Below, in pieces: positions 6,721 through 39,221 of a stretch of 43,566 nucleotides of DNA; position 1 is the first letter of the stretch, and each line of letters starts with the position of its first letter. The DNA comes from Candidatus Aenigmatarchaeota archaeon. GTDB taxonomy: Archaea; Aenigmatarchaeota; Aenigmatarchaeia; GW2011-AR5; GCA-2688965. Position numbers and translations under genes: made by a program. The notes beneath the pieces are model-generated. The model did not search any database. It saw only the letters and a list, made by a program, of their open reading frames with translations, and was not told the origin of the DNA. The DNA is taken from the NCBI GenBank assembly GCA_043813745.1, contig JBDRKV010000027.1, positions 1-43,566 on the forward strand, in the 5' to 3' direction.

Positions 6721-8178
6721 CTAGCCTTTTATAGAAATCAACGGCCTTAGCTTCACGACTTTACGAACAATGCCGCTGTTGTGCATGATGTCCACGACTT
6801 CGTCCACGAGCTTGTATGCGCCTGGCGCTTCTTCTGCCACGCCTGTGCGACTGTGTGCCTTGATTATGATGCCCTTGGATGCTAGTTCCTTGACAAGCGT
6901 GTCTCCCCACCACTTCCTCTTCGCAGCCATGCGGGACATGCATCTACCTGCACCGTGAAGCGCGCTGCCGAATGTCTCGCTCATGCCAAACTCGGTTCCG
7001 TGCATGATGTAAGAAGCAGTGCCCATTGTACCTCCGACTAGTACTGGTTGTCCTATTCTGCGATACTTTTCTGAGACTTCTATGCGGTTTGGGCCGAACG
7101 CACGCGTAGCGCCTTTTCTGTGGATAAGAAGCTTTTTGCTTACGCCGTCTACTTTATGCTCTTCTAGTTTTGCATTATTATGTCCGATGTCATAAAATGT
7201 TTTTATTTCTGATTCGTCTATTCCAAAAACTTTTGCTAAAACCTGGCGCGTCAAATGTCCTAAAACCTGGCGGTTAGCGAATGCCAGATTCATGCCTGCA
7301 TTGACTGCTGAAAAGTATTTCTTGCCTTCTGGCGATGATATAGGCGCGCACACGAGCTCTTTGTCGCGGATAGGTATATTATACTTCTTGCTTGCCTGCT
7401 CCAGGAACGGCAAGTAGTCGGTTCCGATTTGATGTCCGAGCGCGCGCGAGCCGCAGTGTATAGACACGAGGATTTGGTCTTTGCTCAAGCCGAATGCGCT
7501 AGCGGCTTTCTCGTCATAGATTTGATCAACATACTGGACTTCTAAATAATGATTACCGCTGCCTAGCGTGCCTAGCTGCTTTCCTTCGCGCTTTTTTGCT
7601 ATGTCGCTCACTGCTGTTGGATCAGCGCCGTCAACGCAGCCGTTTTCTTCAATAAAGTCCAGGTCGGCTTTAGAGCCATATCCGGTTGCTATGGCATACT
7701 TCGCGCCTTTGATTAGAACTTCATCCACGTCGCTTGGCTTGAGACGGATTTGTCCTTCAGAACCAAGTCCGGCTGGTATTTTCTTAAATAATTCTTCTGC
7801 TAACTGAGATTTCTTTTTTTCAACGTCTTCCCTTTTCAATGGTATTATCATGTCGTGCACGCCGCAGTTGATGTCAAACCCGATGCCCGCGACGCTGATA
7901 ACACCTTTGTCCAAATCAAAAGCGCCCACGCCGCCTATGGGAAAACCATAACCAGGATGCACGTCAGCCATGGCCAATGCGGCCTTTTGTATGCCTGGCA
8001 AACAAGCGACGTTAATTAATTGCAATAATGCGTTCCACTCTTTTCCGCTCTCAACGTCCGCTGTCAAGTTTCTAATGGTTTCCTGGTTGCCATAGATGAT
8101 AGCAGGGGCGTTCATATCGCCGCTTTTTTCTACGAGCCACTTAAAATCAGTTATTCGTTTTACCTGGGGTATATTCAT
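6721..8178 (-). CDS. rtcB: RNA-splicing ligase RtcB (3'-phosphate/5'-OH tRNA ligase)
   Basis: RtcB motifs GFDINCG, GSGNHYLEVQ, HCGSRALGHQ, HNNA, and C-terminal ...ISIKG. Start set at ATG 8178 (MNIPQVKRI) because TTTTAAAT sits 23-30 nt upstream and overlaps the 8202 ATG. Confidence 0.95.
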   Translation of the reverse strand: MNIPQVKRITDFKWLVEKSGDMNAPAIIYGNQETIRNLTADVESGKEWNALLQLINVACLPGIQKAALAMADVHPGYGFPIGGVGAFDLDKGVISVAGIGFDINCGVHDMIIPLKREDVEKKKSQLAEELFKKIPAGLGSEGQIRLKPSDVDEVLIKGAKYAIATGYGSKADLDFIEENGCVDGADPTAVSDIAKKREGKQLGTLGSGNHYLEVQYVDQIYDEKAASAFGLSKDQILVSIHCGSRALGHQIGTDYLPFLEQASKKYNIPIRDKELVCAPISSPEGKKYFSAVNAGMNLAFANRQVLGHLTRQVLAKVFGIDESEIKTFYDIGHNNAKLEEHKVDGVSKKLLIHRKGATRAFGPNRIEVSEKYRRIGQPVLVGGTMGTASYIMHGTEFGMSETFGSALHGAGRCMSRMAAKRKWWGDTLVKELASKGIIIKAHSRTGVAEEAPGAYKLVDEVVDIMHNSGIVRKVVKLRPLISIKG

Positions 8179-8200
8179 AACCAATAAAATGCTTATTTGC

Positions 8201-8208
8201 ATTTAAAA
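8201..8208 (-). promoter_or_regulatory. TATA-like box of rtcB (leaderless-type spacing)
   Basis: Minus-strand TTTTAAAT lies 23-30 nt upstream of ATG 8178. Confidence 0.4.
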
Positions 8209-8728: not shown

Positions 8729-9151
8729 TCAGACATCAACAAGGCATTCAGCGTACGACTTGCCGGCTAAGTCATATACTTTCAGTCCGCTGTATGTGGC
8801 TGCCTTGACCTCGGTCTTGATGATGTGGCGCTGCAGGTCTATTTTTTCTCCGAACGCCTTGGCACGCAGCGAGAACTCGTTTTGGTTACGATGGATGTTC
8901 ACAAAGAACTGCGAAAAAAACATTCGCTTGATGTCTTTCTGTGTCAAGAGCTCGTTGAGAAATGTGACCAACAGCTGTTCGAGCGTTGGCGCTTTAACGC
9001 TAAACTCGATTTTGTCTTTCTGCTTCACGCCGTCAATGTCAACCATGATGTTGAACATTGCCTTGGCTGCTTCTTCAAACGCTTCTTCTGCTGACGCTCC
9101 CTCGCCGACAATTCCGACGTCGGCCTGGTGCTCCTTGTAACGGAAGGGCAT
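8729..9151 (-). CDS. Archease (RtcB activator)
   Basis: 140 aa. N-terminal YKEHQADVGIVGEGASAEEAFEEAAKAM and the overall length are typical of archease. Confidence 0.9.
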   Translation of the reverse strand: MPFRYKEHQADVGIVGEGASAEEAFEEAAKAMFNIMVDIDGVKQKDKIEFSVKAPTLEQLLVTFLNELLTQKDIKRMFFSQFFVNIHRNQNEFSLRAKAFGEKIDLQRHIIKTEVKAATYSGLKVYDLAGKSYAECLVDV

Positions 9152-9410: not shown

Positions 9411-10019
9411 TCATATATCGCTTGGCGTAATCTTATCCGTGTTCTTGTCCAGCTCTGCTGCTATCTGGTATAGCTGGTCTATGCTTACTAGCGATGGACT
9501 ATCTGCTGACGAGCGTGACATAACCCTTATAGTGTATTTTCCAGAACTATCTAGGAAATATAACTGGTTTCCTGCGTCCAATACGCTCGTATCAACGTAA
9601 TCAAATGAAGCCTGGCCGACTTTGTTCGTCTCATGGAAGGTGCTTGTTCCGGATTCAAACATTTTCTCGATTGCATAATAACTTGCAGCATAAATAACGT
9701 ACTTGTCGTTTGATGAGAACGTGGATGCGGATGCGCTTCCTACAGCGTCATACTGGCATTGATTTAGGACGGCGTTTTGTGATTTGTATTTTATCTGGCT
9801 TCCTATTATCTCAGTAAGCTTGGACTCTTGTATCATGTCAGCGCATACGCAGGTATGGAATTTTGCAGCACTGGTTGTCGTTGTAGCAGCTGTTGTTGGC
9901 GTGCCTGAAACACTGGTTGTAGTAGCTGTTGTAGCGACTGTTGTATTATCGCTGCTGCTGCAGCCGGATATTATCAAAACAGATGCCAAAATAAAAATAA
10001 TTGCCAATTGCTTTTTCAT
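9411..10019 (-). CDS. Lipoprotein, paralog family member 4 (Thr-rich linker)
   Basis: Signal peptide plus lipobox (LIISGC), linker TTVATTATTTSVSGTPTTAATTTTS. Shared family motifs: CADMI..SKLTEIIG, HETNKVGQASFDY, DSSGKYTI, IAAELDKNTDKIT. Confidence 0.7.
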   Translation of the reverse strand: MKKQLAIIFILASVLIISGCSSSDNTTVATTATTTSVSGTPTTAATTTTSAAKFHTCVCADMIQESKLTEIIGSQIKYKSQNAVLNQCQYDAVGSASASTFSSNDKYVIYAASYYAIEKMFESGTSTFHETNKVGQASFDYVDTSVLDAGNQLYFLDSSGKYTIRVMSRSSADSPSLVSIDQLYQIAAELDKNTDKITPSDI

Positions 10020-10029
10020 GTTATCATCC

Positions 10030-10647
10030 TTAAACGATGTTGTTCGTGTTCGCGTTGATTTCTGTTGCTATCGAGTAAAGCGTGTCCATGCCCAGCACTG
10101 TTTGAGTGCTGACAGTGCCAGACGTTAGAATTATAGTGTATTTGCCAGAGCTGTCCGCGAAGGTGACAAAGCTGCCTCCGCCTCCACTAATCATGTAATC
10201 AAAGGAAGCGGTTCCTACCTTGTTTGTTTCGTGGTAGTCCGAAACATACTGAGAGTCGGAGAATGCTAGTTTCTGGCCTGAATAGTAAGAAGCGCCAGAG
10301 TAGACTTTATAATAATTTGCCACCATTAGCCTGTCTGAAACAGTGAACTCGCAGGTTTGCGTGCCGAGTATTTCTGAATATTCCGGGTTTGCGGCTTTGT
10401 ATGTCACTGACGTGCCGATTATCTGGGTAAGCTTTGCCTCGGAAACAATGTCAGCGCATGCAAAGCTCATTGCGCCTGATGCGGTCGTGGTTGTGACACC
10501 AGCTGTTGACGTGGTGGTTTCGCCGCCTGACACGCTGGTTGTCGAAGCTGTCGTGGCTACTGTACTTGACGTGTTAGATGAGCAGCCTGCTACGACGAGC
10601 ACGGCTGCTAGAATCATGATGGATAGAAGACAGGTTTTGGTTTTCAT
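10030..10647 (-). CDS. Lipoprotein, paralog family member 3
   Basis: MKTKTCLLSIMILAAVLVVAGC lipobox, Thr/Ser linker, CADIVSEAKLTQIIG, HETNKVGTASFDY, DSSGKYTI. Start set at ATG 10647, matching the paralog at 12084 and its TATA box. Confidence 0.7.
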   Translation of the reverse strand: MKTKTCLLSIMILAAVLVVAGCSSNTSSTVATTASTTSVSGGETTTSTAGVTTTTASGAMSFACADIVSEAKLTQIIGTSVTYKAANPEYSEILGTQTCEFTVSDRLMVANYYKVYSGASYYSGQKLAFSDSQYVSDYHETNKVGTASFDYMISGGGGSFVTFADSSGKYTIILTSGTVSTQTVLGMDTLYSIATEINANTNNIV

Positions 10648-10680
10648 ACTATCTCTTAGGTTGAGGGGATATAAATAATT
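10538..10680. repeat. Dispersed direct repeat, copy A (promoter plus signal peptide plus linker of a lipoprotein gene)
   Basis: The 106-nt core 10575-10680 differs from 12012-12117 at 5 positions by manual alignment. A further identical 20-mer occurs at 10538-10557 and 11972-11991. Confidence 0.9.
10669..10678 (-). promoter_or_regulatory. TATA-like box (TTATTTATAT) of lipoprotein gene 10030..10647; an identical copy lies upstream of 11524..12084
   Basis: It lies 22-31 nt upstream of ATG 10647. The same sequence occurs at about 12106-12115, upstream of ATG 12084. Confidence 0.45.
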
Positions 10681-10697
10681 AAAAATTCGCTTTTCGT

Positions 10698-11519
10698 TCA
10701 ACCAATATTTGAATGTATGACTTCCGCGAACTCGTAGGCTACTGCAAAAGCATCGTCCTCGGTTATGTAATCCTTTCCGACTTCCACTACTACTGTGTAC
10801 TTTCCGCTGTTGTCAACGAATTCAACACGGTGCTTGCCTGCATAATCGTACTGCAGAGATGCTTTGCCTACTTTGTTCGTTTCAATATAATTAGTCATGC
10901 CTGTGCTAGAGCCTCTGTCATGGCTGTACTTGTGCGTGCAATATAATGCCACAGGCCACACTTGATAGTGTGGTTCTATTTCTCCTATGTAACCCGTGTA
11001 TCTTTGCGTTTGTGTGAGCTTGTCGTAGTCTGTTTCTGTGTAGATGTCACGGTATATGGCTATGCTCATTACACAATGATATCCTCCGCTGGCTTCTGCG
11101 CGCGGCGCTACTTCTGAATAAGCGCGCCTTGCATTAAACACGCCGCCAACCGGGTAATATGAACCGCCAATGCCTGCGTCGCTGTTCAGTATGCTTATAA
11201 TTGCCGCATCAGGCAATAAGTCAGCGCATCTGAAATTGATGGCCGGCAGGGCTGTTATTAATGCGTTTAATTCTACGAAGTCGCTTGAAGGGCAGAATGA
11301 TGGCAGCGACGACGATCCGACTGTGGTTGCTATGCTTGTCGCGCCGTCTATGATAGATGTAGCGGGATTATCATTGATTGTAGATGGATTCAATCCATTA
11401 CCAATTAATGTGCAGTTTGCAGTGCCGTTGGTGCAGTTCTTCAAATTATTGTTCGCGCATCCGGATACTAATAAAATCGTACTCAGCAAAACCAAGAAAA
11501 AAAGTTTTTGCGTTTTCAT
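10698..11519 (-). CDS. Lipoprotein, paralog family member 2 (longer, divergent N-terminal region)
   Basis: Lipobox LLVSGC. Retains the family motifs RCADLLPDAAIISIL, IETNKVGKASLQYDY, DNSGKYTV. Confidence 0.7.
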   Translation of the reverse strand: MKTQKLFFLVLLSTILLVSGCANNNLKNCTNGTANCTLIGNGLNPSTINDNPATSIIDGATSIATTVGSSSLPSFCPSSDFVELNALITALPAINFRCADLLPDAAIISILNSDAGIGGSYYPVGGVFNARRAYSEVAPRAEASGGYHCVMSIAIYRDIYTETDYDKLTQTQRYTGYIGEIEPHYQVWPVALYCTHKYSHDRGSSTGMTNYIETNKVGKASLQYDYAGKHRVEFVDNSGKYTVVVEVGKDYITEDDAFAVAYEFAEVIHSNIG

Positions 11520-11523
11520 TGAA

Positions 11524-12084
11524 TCACGTTTGTGTTATTTTGTCTGTGTTCTTGTCTATCTCCGCAGCTATCAGGTACCCCTGGTCTACAGTGCTTATCA
11601 TGTTCACTAAAATAGTGTATTTATCGTCTGTGCTAAGAACCGTTACAACCGGCGAGTCATACAAATTATATTGAAATGATGCCTTGCCGGCTCTGTTTGT
11701 TTCAAGATAATTTGTTACGTGCTCTTGCGTATCTATGGTATTTTTTGTATTAGTGTATAGACTTGATTCAAAGATACCGTAACCGTATGCGGCAGAATTG
11801 AAAAGGAATGAACAAACCCCGCGATTCGGCGTTGCCCTTATATATCTCCCACCGCTACCTCCCAATATTTCCGAAAACTTTTCTGCTGATATGAGATCCG
11901 CGCAGTTGAAAGACAGTGCTCCTGTTGTGGTTGTGGCTGTTCCACTGACAGTCGTAGTGGAATCCGCGTTTGTTGTCGAAGCTGTCGTGGCCACAGTAGT
12001 CGTGTCATTACTAGATGAGCAGCCTGCTACGACGAGCACGGCTGCGAGAATTATGATGGATAGAAGATAGGTTTTAGTTTTCAT
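11524..12084 (-). CDS. Lipoprotein, paralog family member 1
   Basis: MKTKTYLLSIIILAAVLVVAGC lipobox, Thr-rich linker, NCADLISAEKFSEILG, LETNRAGKASFQY, IAAEIDKNTDKIT. Confidence 0.7.
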   Translation of the reverse strand: MKTKTYLLSIIILAAVLVVAGCSSSNDTTTVATTASTTNADSTTTVSGTATTTTGALSFNCADLISAEKFSEILGGSGGRYIRATPNRGVCSFLFNSAAYGYGIFESSLYTNTKNTIDTQEHVTNYLETNRAGKASFQYNLYDSPVVTVLSTDDKYTILVNMISTVDQGYLIAAEIDKNTDKITQT

Positions 12085-30098: not shown

Positions 30099-30339
30099 TT
30101 TTATCACCTGTCCGTACTCTCTGCCATTCCTGGAAAGCTTGCTTGAACTGTTTTCCTGTGTAGGGCTTGCTAAAATCAACATGCGGGAGATAATGTCGAT
30201 CTAGCATTTCTATAGGCACAATGCCTTCCTCTGTTTTACCATCGTATGTTATTTTACATGGTAGGAAATTGACGTGTCTTTTGGCTTTGCAATGCATACT
30301 GATTCTTGCATTATCCGGTATATCTAAAATGTTAATCAT
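30091..30339 (-). CDS. Hypothetical protein (82 aa), second gene of the metallopeptidase operon
   Basis: ATG 30339 overlaps the upstream stop by 8 nt (ATGATTAA). Confidence 0.5.
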   Translation of the reverse strand: MINILDIPDNARISMHCKAKRHVNFLPCKITYDGKTEEGIVPIEMLDRHYLPHVDFSKPYTGKQFKQAFQEWQRVRTGDKNA

Positions 30340-30703
30340 TCTTCAACATCCTGTACATTGTATCCACATTGTGACGGGTAACATGATTAGAGTGGTGCAA
30401 AAATCCGCCGCCCATGGACTTCGGAACGTGCATTAATTCATGTATTATGGTTTTAATTTTTTCTTCGTCGCTCATCTTGTCGAATGCCTCGGAAATGACC
30501 TCTATAACATAAAACGACTTTTTGTGCCCCAGGGCTGTGCGCATGATGCGCGACATGCTGTGGCACCGGGCTGTTGTTAACATGGCTTTGGAGCCATGTG
30601 AACGCACAAACATAACAAATGTTGGATCCATGGGCAAGCCTAGTTTTCTGATTATCCTCATCGCCGCTTCCTGGATGTCGGGTGCGGGCTCGTAGCGAAT
30701 CAT
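30332..30703 (-). CDS. Small predicted zinc metallopeptidase (HExxH)
   Basis: IIHELMHV motif plus downstream His residues (HHSNH). The ~120 aa size resembles the archaeal predicted-metallopeptidase / SprT-like minimal fold. Confidence 0.6.
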   Translation of the reverse strand: MIRYEPAPDIQEAAMRIIRKLGLPMDPTFVMFVRSHGSKAMLTTARCHSMSRIMRTALGHKKSFYVIEVISEAFDKMSDEEKIKTIIHELMHVPKSMGGGFLHHSNHVTRHNVDTMYRMLKND

Positions 30704-30829: not shown

Positions 30830-31459
30830 ATGGAAATCAATGAAATATATTTAGATAGTGAATTAGCTGAGTTAATAGGAGCTTTCATTGGCGATGGGTT
30901 TATCGGTAGGTATGGTGGTAGTTATCATGTGGAATTCGTAGGAAATATAAAATTAGATCGTGATTACTTAATGTACCTTTCTAACATAATAACATCGCAT
31001 TTTAATGTAAAACCAAGAACTGTAATTCACGCTGGTGCAATTAGATTAATTATAACATACAAGGAGTTGCATACATTTTTTAAGAATATTGGATTCACCG
31101 ATGGTATCAAAAATAAGTCGGTTTCTATTCCTGAAAATTTACTTAATTCGGATTTGATAAAACACCTAGTGAGAGGTTTGTTCGATACGGATGGTTACTT
31201 GTTCATCGATAGACGAAAAATATACAAAACTCCTTATGTTAGAATCGGGTTATCTACAAAGAGCCAGTTGTTATTTCAACAGATGAAATCCTTACTTATT
31301 GAGAATGGTTATAAACTTTATACGAGAGTTGACAGGCGCTATAACATTTATAATCTTGAAATATATGGAAATATACAAGTAACCCGTTGGATTAAGGAAT
31401 ACGGGTTTTCAAATAAAAACAAGAAGAATCTTGCCTCAGTAGCTCAGTTGGTATCTTGA
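30830..31459 (+). mobile_element. Free-standing double-motif LAGLIDADG homing endonuclease ORF
   Basis: Two LAGLIDADG motifs (LAELIGAFIGDGFIG and LVRGLFDTDGYLF). Visibly AT-richer than its surroundings. Its last 27 nt overlap tRNA-Thr exon 1 and intron 1. Confidence 0.85.
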
Positions 31460-31576
31460 CGAATGTCAAGAGTTTGAGTCCGCCAAGACGATAGAGAGCG
31501 TTAAACGTTTCGGTTTCGAAATGTTCGCTAAACCTTGGTAAGGTAAAGGTCGCGAGTTCAATCCTCGTCTGAGGCT
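31433..31576 (+). tRNA. tRNA-Thr (anticodon GGT) with two non-canonical BHB introns
   Basis: Exons 31433-31452, 31495-31502 and 31532-31576. They splice to a 73-nt cloverleaf: GCCTCAG TA GCTC AGTTGGTA GAGC G TTACC TTGGTAA GGTAA AGGTC GCGAG TTCAATC CTCGT CTGAGGC T. Introns are 42 nt (position 20/21) and 29 nt (position 28/29). Each is flanked by 3-nt bulges around a 4-bp helix. Confidence 0.85.
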
Positions 31577-31950
31577 TTTATGGAGCAATCGTCGCCGAAT
31601 CGGAAAACATATAACTCGATATTGAAGGCATTCGGCTGCCTATAATCGCGCTCAACAAGAATGCCTATGCGGTCTTTTTTATCTGTGCGGCGTTCAATAG
31701 CTGGCGTGAGGTGTTTTGGTTGTTTTTGAATATTTTCAAATGCCTGCTCTTCATCTCCATTGTACACAAAAGTGAATGACGAAACCCGCGCCTGAGGCGC
31801 GGTAGAATATTTTGCATGAGGCGCTACAGGGTCAATGTGGTCCGTGAGAATGATATGGTTTTTATTTTCATCACTTTTATGAATAAAAATACAGACTAAA
31901 CCGCTGTCTTTTCCTACTTCTTTTCTGAGCCTGTAGATAGGTTTAACCAT
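31558..31950 (-). CDS. Hypothetical protein (130 aa); its 3' end overlaps tRNA-Thr antisense
   Basis: ORF track. Its last ~19 nt are antisense to the tRNA T-arm and acceptor. Confidence 0.45.
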   Translation of the reverse strand: MVKPIYRLRKEVGKDSGLVCIFIHKSDENKNHIILTDHIDPVAPHAKYSTAPQARVSSFTFVYNGDEEQAFENIQKQPKHLTPAIERRTDKKDRIGILVERDYRQPNAFNIELYVFRFGDDCSIKASDED

Positions 31951-31987
31951 ATAATCATAAGATTTCTGAATTTTTTAAGGGTTGTTT

Positions 31988-32230
31988 TCATGCATCAGAC
32001 ATGAAATATTTTTCAACTGCTTCAGTGACAACAGGGCATCTTTTCTTTGAAATAATGCAGACGCGTTCCCTGCCTTTGCGAGATGCTTTATAGTGAGGGC
32101 AGGTGTTTGTGATAACCAGATTGCCTTCTCTTTTTAACACTGAAACAGTAGCATGCTCTGACAAATCCAATAGATCCATGAGTGAATCAGCATAACATAA
32201 TGCTTCCTGCTTGACTGGACTGCTTTGCAT
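31988..32230 (-). CDS. Hypothetical small protein (80 aa)
   Basis: The C-terminal 80 aa of the 154-aa ORF look protein-like. Start set at ATG 32230, which leaves a 51-bp divergent promoter gap. Confidence 0.35.
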   Translation of the reverse strand: MQSSPVKQEALCYADSLMDLLDLSEHATVSVLKREGNLVITNTCPHYKASRKGRERVCIISKKRCPVVTEAVEKYFMSDA

Positions 32231-39084: not shown

Positions 39085-39221
39085 TCCCTTGTCTGAGAGT
39101 TGAACTCAGAACCTCTCGGTTTCTATCGTCCGCTTCTTTTTTCCAAACGAAGGCTGGATTATAGTACGGTATTTACAGTACTAAGCTACAGCCGAGCGCT
39201 CTACCATTGAGCTAACAAGGG
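39085..39221 (-). tRNA. tRNA-Tyr (anticodon GTA) with 65-nt canonical (37/38) intron
   Basis: Minus strand: CCCTTGT TA GCTC AATGGTA GAGC G CTCGG CTGTAG | intron 39185..39121 | A CCGAG AGGTT CTGAG TTCAACT CTCAG ACAAGGG A. BHB: central helix CTGT/ATAG with bulges AG|C and AA|A. Confidence 0.9.

Follow-up and report, generated by a model that had tools for sequence, protein, structure and literature searches.

A tRNA-Thr(GGU) gene with two non-canonical bulge-helix-bulge introns on a contig of the Aenigmatarchaeota

We describe a gene for tRNA-Thr(GGU) on contig JBDRKV010000027.1, a stretch of 43,566 nucleotides (nt; hereafter the window) that is the entire contig of a metagenome-assembled genome (MAG) of the Aenigmatarchaeota, a phylum of the DPANN archaea. 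The gene is interrupted twice, at the non-canonical tRNA positions 20/21 and 28/29, and both interruptions have the form of bulge-helix-bulge (BHB) introns. Very probably it is a functional gene whose transcript is spliced by the EndA endonuclease and the RtcB ligase, with the second intron probably leaving first. The cloverleaf of the joined exons, the register of the BHB motifs and the covariation among orthologous genes carry this conclusion.

A tRNA-Thr(GGU) gene in three exons

The gene is made up of the following parts.

31433..31576, forward strand: tRNA-Thr(GGU) precursor, 144 nt including the discriminator U73, with a perfect 7-bp acceptor stem (GCCUCAG/CUGAGGC), a D arm and a T arm; called by ARAGORN on the spliced product.
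31433..31452, forward strand: exon 1, 20 nt (tRNA positions 1-20); the same 20-mer is found in the orthologues L081 and L086 introduced below.
31453..31494, forward strand: intron 1, 42 nt, position 20/21 in the D loop, placed by its BHB register; site and layout are common to L081, L086 and L091/L092.
31495..31502, forward strand: exon 2, 8 nt, AGAGCGTT (in RNA, AGAGCGUU), positions 21-28 (A21, the 3' strand of the D stem, G26, U27, U28); the D stem and anticodon-stem pairs 1-2 need it.
31503..31531, forward strand: intron 2, 29 nt, position 28/29 in the anticodon stem, placed by its BHB register and present in the minimum free energy (MFE) structure of the precursor.
31532..31576, forward strand: exon 3, 45 nt, positions 29-73 (the remaining anticodon arm with GGU, the variable loop, the T arm, the 3' acceptor strand and U73), placed by the cloverleaf, ARAGORN and covariation.

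The precursor reads GCCUCAG-UA-GCUC-AGUUGGU, the 42 nt of intron 1, AGAGCGUU, the 29 nt of intron 2, and then ACC-UUGGUAA-GGUAA-AGGUC-GCGAG-UUCAAUC-CUCGU-CUGAGGC-U. Joining 31433-31452, 31495-31502 and 31532-31576 gives a 73-mer that folds as a cloverleaf (ViennaRNA) and that ARAGORN identifies as tRNA-Thr(GGT), its acceptor stem perfect over 7 bp, its D stem of 4 bp, and its anticodon and T stems of 5 bp each. As read from the sequence, all conserved tRNA nucleotides are present (U8, A14, G18G19, A21, G26, U33 and A37, and further the G15/C48 pair, G53, U54U55C56, A58 and C61). The acceptor stem and U73 are exactly those of an intron-less Thr(GGU) gene on another DPANN contig, L001, and G1-C72, C2-G71, C3-G70 and U73 are compatible with threonine acceptor identity as read by archaeal threonyl-tRNA synthetase.

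Default ARAGORN and Rfam at its gathering threshold make no call at 31433-31576; with the Rfam cut-off relaxed to E<=10, the 3' part (exon 3) alone is aligned, weakly, at 18.5 bits. The original prediction of this gene had placed tRNA-Thr(GGU) in three exons around an 8-nt middle exon, and each of its coordinates and sequences is correct. It had also proposed ARAGORN with intron search as a check, and here the outcome was divided: the spliced 73-mer is returned as tRNA-Thr(GGT), whereas intron mode (-i) on the unspliced gene reports a tRNA-Leu(CAA) spanning 31433-31576, with one 51-nt anticodon-loop intron and a long variable arm. We give this leucine model practically no credence. Its D stem (CUCG/UCUU) is essentially one G.U pair, its "variable arm" is an unpaired string of 25 nt, its anticodon stem contains a G.U pair and a bulged extension, its junctions have no BHB, and it ignores the perfect Thr anticodon arm. 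The acceptor stem and U73 are moreover those of the Thr(GGU) gene of L001; structure effectively refutes the leucine model.

Two other gene types were ruled out. The three exons are colinear within 144 nt, which excludes a split or permuted tRNA gene. Group I tRNA introns measure about 200 nt or more, contain a P1-P9 catalytic core and usually lie in the anticodon loop; self-splicing introns of this kind were dismissed here, the introns being 42 and 29 nt long with no match to an Rfam intron family (at the gathering threshold, or at E<=10 in 31000-32000).

Both introns carry BHB motifs in the register set by the exons

The mature sequence sets the exon junctions to within 1 nt, and we looked for a 3-4-3 BHB in exactly that register. 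We shuffled each intron and counted how often, in the register that the junctions demand, a 4-bp central helix arose together with an inner helix as long as the one observed; P was 4e-4 (intron 1) and 5e-6 (intron 2). Of the 7847 possible pairs of cuts in the precursor, one of the two proposed pairs scores best, and the other shares second place with a register slip within the hairpin of intron 2. The motifs are composed as follows.

BHB 1, forward strand: central helix (H1) 31447-31450/31489-31492; 5' bulge 31451-31453; inner helix 31454-31458/31484-31488; 3' bulge 31493-31495.
BHB 1 outer helix, forward strand: the D stem, 31442-31445/31496-31499, with A14 (31446) unpaired.
BHB 2, forward strand: central helix (H2) 31497-31500/31526-31529; 5' bulge 31501-31503; hairpin 31504-31512/31517-31525 with loop 31513-31516; 3' bulge 31530-31532.

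In both introns, 3-nt bulges lie on opposite strands with a 4-bp helix between them, and the predicted cuts fall after the second bulge nucleotide. BHB 1 has a central helix GUUG/CGAU, in which two Watson-Crick pairs stand beside two G.U pairs, the bulges GUA (5') and AGA (3'), and a 5-bp inner helix UCUUG/CAAGA. BHB 2 has a central helix AGCG/CGCU with four Watson-Crick pairs, the bulges UUA and AAA, and an inner hairpin of 9 bp; its outer helix is essentially missing (a single G-C pair), making it HBh' in type. With two BHB introns in one colinear tRNA gene, this is a multi-intron archaeal tRNA gene.

The original prediction had described both motifs, with the D stem as the outer helix of BHB 1, the same bulges, helices, 9-bp hairpin and cut sites, and each reappeared in the junction-fixed register; to it we add that A14 is unpaired across from the 3' bulge of BHB 1, between the D stem and H1. 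Its rule of cutting after the second nucleotide in all four bulges gives a clean cloverleaf including the Thr anticodon arm, and its statement that the cloverleaf requires both removals holds as well, the proposed cuts alone restoring it among the 7847 pairs.

The strict form of the motif, hBHBh', has helices on both flanks of the bulges and no extra unpaired nucleotides, and it is what alpha4 and alpha'2 enzymes without extra loops need. Neither intron has this form, BHB 1 because of the unpaired A14 and BHB 2 because of its 1-bp outer helix. Relaxed motifs (HBh'-like) are a recognised subclass (PMC3239211).

Orthologous genes conserve the cloverleaf and BHB 1

A metagenome scan for the two-insert architecture returned a single contig, L081, and its neighbouring gene for diphosphomevalonate decarboxylase was used to retrieve more contigs with a syntenic Thr(GGU) gene. 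Each orthologue was parsed by cloverleaf and BHB register, with the following intron contents.

Window: 20/21 (42 nt) and 28/29 (29 nt).
L081: 20/21 (82 nt) and 37/38 (56 nt).
L086: 20/21 (22 nt) and 59/60 (55 nt, strict hBHBh').
L087: 37/38 (55 nt) and 59/60 (159 nt).
L090: 37/38 (27 nt).
L091, identical to L092: 20/21 (21 nt).
L088, identical to L089: no intron.

The seven distinct spliced products are all 73-nt tRNA-Thr(GGT) in silico. In their alignment, 23 cloverleaf pairs are never broken and 9 of these show compensatory double changes. Pair 28-42, whose 5' partner lies within the 8-nt exon, co-varies (U-A in the window, C-G in L081 and L086).

The 20/21 intron occurs in four lineages (window, L081, L086 and L091/L092) with one layout at lengths of 42, 82, 22 and 21 nt, and in the BHB cores of these four all 48 of 48 cells are paired, as against 37-50% in a control in which the 3' partners were slid by 1-3 columns. 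All four pairs of the inner helix are compensatory (UCUU/AAGA, GUAC/GUAC, GGAG/CUCC), and three of the four central-helix pairs vary on the intron side only, keeping their pairing with the invariant exonic GUUG. Direct observations here are the gene, the register of its cut sites, the BHB pairings, and a cloverleaf and a BHB 1 that are both conserved and co-varying. Because the contig of L081 and the window share only FtsZ, at ~50% amino acid identity, the 20/21 intron would be either old or recurrently acquired.

The orthologous loci hold further features. An alternative parse of L081, with a 42-nt intron, an AGAGCG "exon" and a third intron, was rejected, having no BHB at its junctions and only 2/4 pairs in H. 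The 82-nt D-loop intron of L081 (L081:88-169) has a decoy 3' half of a D arm, GUAGAGCG, exactly 42 nt in, equal to the length of intron 1 of the window, and a weak internal direct repeat (CCGCCUUCUGCAAAAGA / CCGCCUGCAGAAAAGGA, P ~0.03); it may have arisen when a tandem duplication captured an old copy of an exon. The 159-nt insert at 59/60 in L087 (L087:3272-3430) is unusually long, with 3/4 pairs in its BHB central helix and a 5-bp outer helix. About 1.5 kb 3' of the Thr gene, L088, L090 and L091 (all reverse strand) carry a second intron-containing tRNA of 110-148 nt with an insert of variable length, whose start, GGGG(U/C)C, and CUCCAG anticodon region suggest Trp(CCA).

Synteny around a beta-propeller gene of the window, followed over 80 genome loci and 4 more contigs, led to the intron-less Thr(GGU) gene of L001 and, in L006, to a tRNA-Lys with two introns, but to no interrupted orthologue of the Thr gene. 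This tRNA-Lys(CUU), ~213 nt long on the minus strand of another DPANN contig (start 5718 nt into the reverse-complemented locus), is interrupted in the D arm at 22/23 (H UGGU/ACCG, inner helix of 5 bp) and carries a large insert in the anticodon loop.

Splicing machinery on the contig

Two genes for joining exons after BHB cleavage are observed directly on the contig, ~500 nt apart on the same strand, and a second BHB intron lies in a tRNA-Tyr gene.

6721..8202, reverse strand: RtcB tRNA-splicing ligase, which joins exons after BHB cleavage (Pfam PF01139, E = 3.7e-160).
8729..9151, reverse strand: Archease, the RtcB activator (Pfam PF01951, E = 5.7e-41).
39085..39221, reverse strand: tRNA-Tyr(GUA) with a canonical 37/38 BHB intron of 65 nt (39121-39185) (Rfam tRNA, 55.4 bits; ARAGORN -i).

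The BHB of tRNA-Tyr, with H CUGU/AUAG and a 5-bp outer helix, serves as an in-genome positive control for BHB splicing. A 9-mer, GACGAUAGA, is common to the 3' ends of the Tyr intron and of Thr intron 1 (shuffle P ~0.01), and the BHB registers of the two differ.

Since neither BHB of the Thr gene is strict, A14 being unpaired in one and the outer helix lacking in the other, the cleaving enzyme would be an EndA of relaxed specificity, as the original prediction had required and in agreement with the literature (PMC3241643, PMC5829648). Against 1.39 Mb of retrieved DNA, tblastn with an M. jannaschii EndA probe matched only a Desulfurococcales locus.

Folding of the precursor favours removal of intron 2 first

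The 3' strand of the D stem (31496-31499) and the 5' strand of H2 (31497-31500) share nucleotides 31497-31499. BHB 1 relies on the D stem for its outer helix, so full BHB 1 and BHB 2 cannot coexist. This overlap and the mutual exclusivity of the motifs were foreseen in the original prediction, which had put the shared nucleotides at 31496-31499; strictly, only the last three of these are shared. From the clash it had deduced ordered splicing, which the energetics below make plausible.

In the intact precursor, BHB 2 is within the MFE structure (-48.0 kcal/mol), with pair probabilities of 0.76-0.94. The D stem and BHB 1 have a probability near 0.01, and the best structure with them reaches -43.4 kcal/mol. 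When intron 1 is removed in silico, the D stem (0.77) and H2 (0.23) lie within 1 kcal/mol of each other.

From these observations we infer transcription, the cleavage itself, the type of EndA and the order of events. A precursor of ~144 nt would be transcribed with two protein-spliced BHB introns at the non-canonical positions 20/21 and 28/29; EndA would cut after nucleotide 2 of each 3-nt bulge, and RtcB with Archease would ligate the exons of 20, 8 and 45 nt into a canonical tRNA of 73 nt. Intron 2 would leave first, an order favoured because BHB 2 dominates the primary transcript, and intron 1 would be removed afterwards, when the D stem is free to form. Folding makes this order the most plausible one, short of proof. 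Intron 1 would be the slow step, as with the slow D-loop cleavage measured for Aeropyrum pernix (PMC3241643).

The gene and its introns could also be real with no obligatory order: a relaxed EndA would read the H-bulge-h' halves independently in a conformer with no D stem, so that either intron may leave first. To this we assign a substantial minority of our belief. A conformer with the central and inner helices of both introns (H1+h1 and H2+h2) and no D stem lies at -45.3 kcal/mol, 2.7 above the MFE; H2 is still reachable after removal of intron 1, as the probabilities above indicate; and relaxed EndAs cut HBh'/hBH motifs, even mini-helices, without the tRNA body (PMC3239211, PMC3241643). Without the D stem, however, the 3' bulge AGA of intron 1 has no helix 3' of it and is part of neither an hBH nor an HBh' motif. 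In the folded conformer lacking the D stem, CUC pairs with GAG instead, which reduces that bulge to 1 nt, and the D stem is placed as outer helix in all four lineages that have the 20/21 intron.

Several points weigh against the conclusion that this is a functional, doubly spliced gene. Two of the central-helix pairs of BHB 1 are G.U. The conformer with BHB 1 is disfavoured by 4.6 kcal/mol relative to the MFE of the precursor and, once intron 2 is taken out in silico, still by 3.6 kcal/mol; it competes with a decoy D stem (GCUCAG/UUGAGU) and with a proximal hairpin of 7 bp (UCUUGAC/GUCAAGA, 31454-31460/31465-31471). The alignment of BHB 1 was put together in the BHB register, with a linker standing in for the loops, and so leans towards the structure, though the register is set by the exon junctions. 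Intron 2 has no comparative support, as none of the Thr(GGU) orthologues recovered has a 28/29 intron. No EndA domain was found among the 50 open reading frame (ORF) translations of the contig that were scanned. Transcription and splicing of the locus are predictions from DNA sequence, and with a single contig of the MAG examined, an intron-less copy of Thr(GGU) may exist elsewhere in the genome.

Some of these points would also suit a decaying or non-functional tRNA relic that has retained insertions in which the BHBs are fortuitous: standard finders miss the locus, BHB 1 is not the thermodynamically preferred fold, the 5' end of the gene is overlapped for 27 nt by an ORF, and one contig of the genome is visible. 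We think such a relic very improbable. No conserved tRNA position is damaged in the exons, the 7-bp acceptor stem is perfect, the BHB register of both introns is far beyond chance, and relatives as distant as the shared FtsZ indicates keep identical or co-varying exons together with a compensated 20/21 BHB. Conserved exons and compensatory changes of this kind require purifying selection on splicing.

A family of introns at two positions of the gene

The ~55-nt introns at 37/38 in L081 (187-242) and L087 (3195-3249) are clearly homologous to the 59/60 intron of L086 (1173-1227). Their local alignment scores, 52-65, were reached by 0/1000 shuffles, and their consensus is GAC[C/U]CUUUUCGGUUCA...AAAAGCGUC[A/G]ACGGAAAA. 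The family is found in the anticodon loop in two lineages and in the T loop in a sister lineage, and the mature tRNAs of L081 and L086 differ by 2 nt. This is direct evidence that a BHB intron has relocated within one gene in this clade, the phenomenon known in the Thermoproteales as intron transposition, to which PMC4090602 refers.

Intron 2 of the window matches this family at 9/10 positions (CGUUUCGGUU vs CUUUUCGGUU), at P ~0.01-0.03 in non-independent tests, and at such P values we do not claim homology. Between the introns of the window and other introns, no similarity is significant after multiple testing.

A broader reading, speculative and on balance unlikely, is that the Thr(GGU) locus of this clade is a hot spot where BHB introns are still being gained, lost and relocated. 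The 28/29 intron would then be a truncated third placement of the ~55-nt element, and BHB 2 would clash with the D stem as a by-product of insertion into a gene that already held an intron, making the order intron 2, then intron 1, compulsory.

Neighbouring genes and the host

The flanks of the Thr gene and the rest of the contig hold these further features.

31406..31419, forward strand: A/T-rich box UUUCAAAUAAAAAC, 14-27 nt 5' of the mature end, a possible archaeal TATA-like element, similar to box UUUUGAAUAAUAAAA in L081.
31576..31579, forward strand: U73 followed by the T run, TTTT, a possible oligo-T terminator judged from sequence.
30830..31459, forward strand: LAGLIDADG-like ORF (PF14528, E = 8e-9), ending 27 nt inside the tRNA-Thr gene.
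30332..30703, reverse strand: next ORF upstream, with a "phage metallopeptidase" domain.
9411..12084, reverse strand: three paralogous ORFs in tandem, each weakly matching DUF3558 / New_glue-like domains and perhaps coding for secreted proteins or lipoproteins.

The similar box at L081:41-55 stands at an equal distance from the 5' end of its Thr gene, a spacing that in both contigs suggests a very short leader or none. The tRNA-Tyr gene is without such an obvious A/T-rich box. The LAGLIDADG-like ORF is 32% identical (E = 3e-14) to L085:8718-9461(-), which adjoins a tRNA-His and a beta-propeller gene. This ORF and that of the phage-type metallopeptidase are the only neighbours that could be candidates for a part in intron gain. 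As to the host, the next relatives of the beta-propeller protein of the window are at most 59% identical to it, and the best genome matches are to DPANN archaea.

Discussion

Multi-intron tRNA genes with non-canonical BHB introns are known from Thermoproteales, other Crenarchaeota, Korarchaeum, N. equitans and ARMAN-1/2 (Sugahara et al. 2007/2008; PMC4033280, PMC4090602, PMC3239211). Like these, the gene described here has two short non-canonical introns and relaxed 3-4-3 BHBs whose removal, presumably by EndA and RtcB, restores a cloverleaf. Unlike them, it belongs to the Aenigmatarchaeota (DPANN), a phylum outside the survey of PMC5829648. In the literature we surveyed, with full position tables outside that survey, we found no report of the site pair 20/21 and 28/29.

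Four published systems come close to it in different respects. The tRNA-Thr(GGU) of Caldiarchaeum subterraneum is the same isoacceptor and is likewise interrupted twice at non-canonical sites, once within the D arm; its introns are at 24/25 and 45/46 and heterogeneous at population level (PMC3293823). In both cases intron content differs between close relatives. Caldiarchaeum differs in the intron positions, in its phylum (Aigarchaeota/TACK) and in the proposed cause, integration of a mobile element with a recombinase (PMC3293823). The pre-tRNA-Thr(UGU) of A. pernix likewise has a D-loop BHB intron, which was excised in vitro by relaxed-specificity EndA alone, more slowly than an anticodon-loop intron (PMC3241643), and this slowness fits the weak BHB 1 of the present gene. 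It differs in having a single intron and a crenarchaeal (alpha-beta)2 EndA with the Crenarchaea-specific loop, a loop that DPANN EndAs lack (PMC5829648).

The tRNA-Pro(GGG) of ARMAN-2 is also from the DPANN and has two adjacent non-canonical introns around a middle exon of 6 nt, compared with 8 nt here; both of its introns are in the T loop and strictly hBHBh', and its epsilon2 EndA is known only from Micrarchaeota (PMC3239211). Finally, tRNAscan-SE 2.0 provides for archaeal introns lying so near each other that the second BHB takes shape only after the neighbouring intron has been removed (PMC8450103). That rule is a general one for gene finding, whereas the present case offers a specific clash, between the 3' strand of the D stem and H2, together with its energetics.

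Kaneta et al. (PMC5829648) describe increased disruption of tRNA genes in DPANN and connect it with alpha4 EndAs that carry an "L3" loop. They expect that some disrupted tRNA genes of the DPANN have escaped detection; the genomes they analysed did not include Aenigmarchaeota. We found no description of disrupted tRNA genes of Aenigmatarchaeota in the literature searched.

There is published precedent for tRNAs with several introns, for D-loop introns in tRNA-Thr, for very short middle exons and for BHBs whose formation depends on the order of splicing. The picture of BHB splicing is unchanged, and the case will not surprise a specialist. In practical terms, a MAG of the Aenigmatarchaeota annotated by default ARAGORN and Rfam at the gathering threshold would seem to be without a tRNA-Thr(GGU). 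For the phylum, the gene means that the Aenigmatarchaeota join the lineages with multi-intron, non-canonically interrupted tRNAs, with a relaxed EndA specificity implied. If the hot-spot reading is true, it would extend tRNA intron transposition, so far argued for the Thermoproteales, to the DPANN and would offer closely related before/after alleles for studies of mechanism. The set of orthologues, with zero to two introns at four positions and one intron family at two of them, forms a compact natural series for the gain and movement of tRNA introns.

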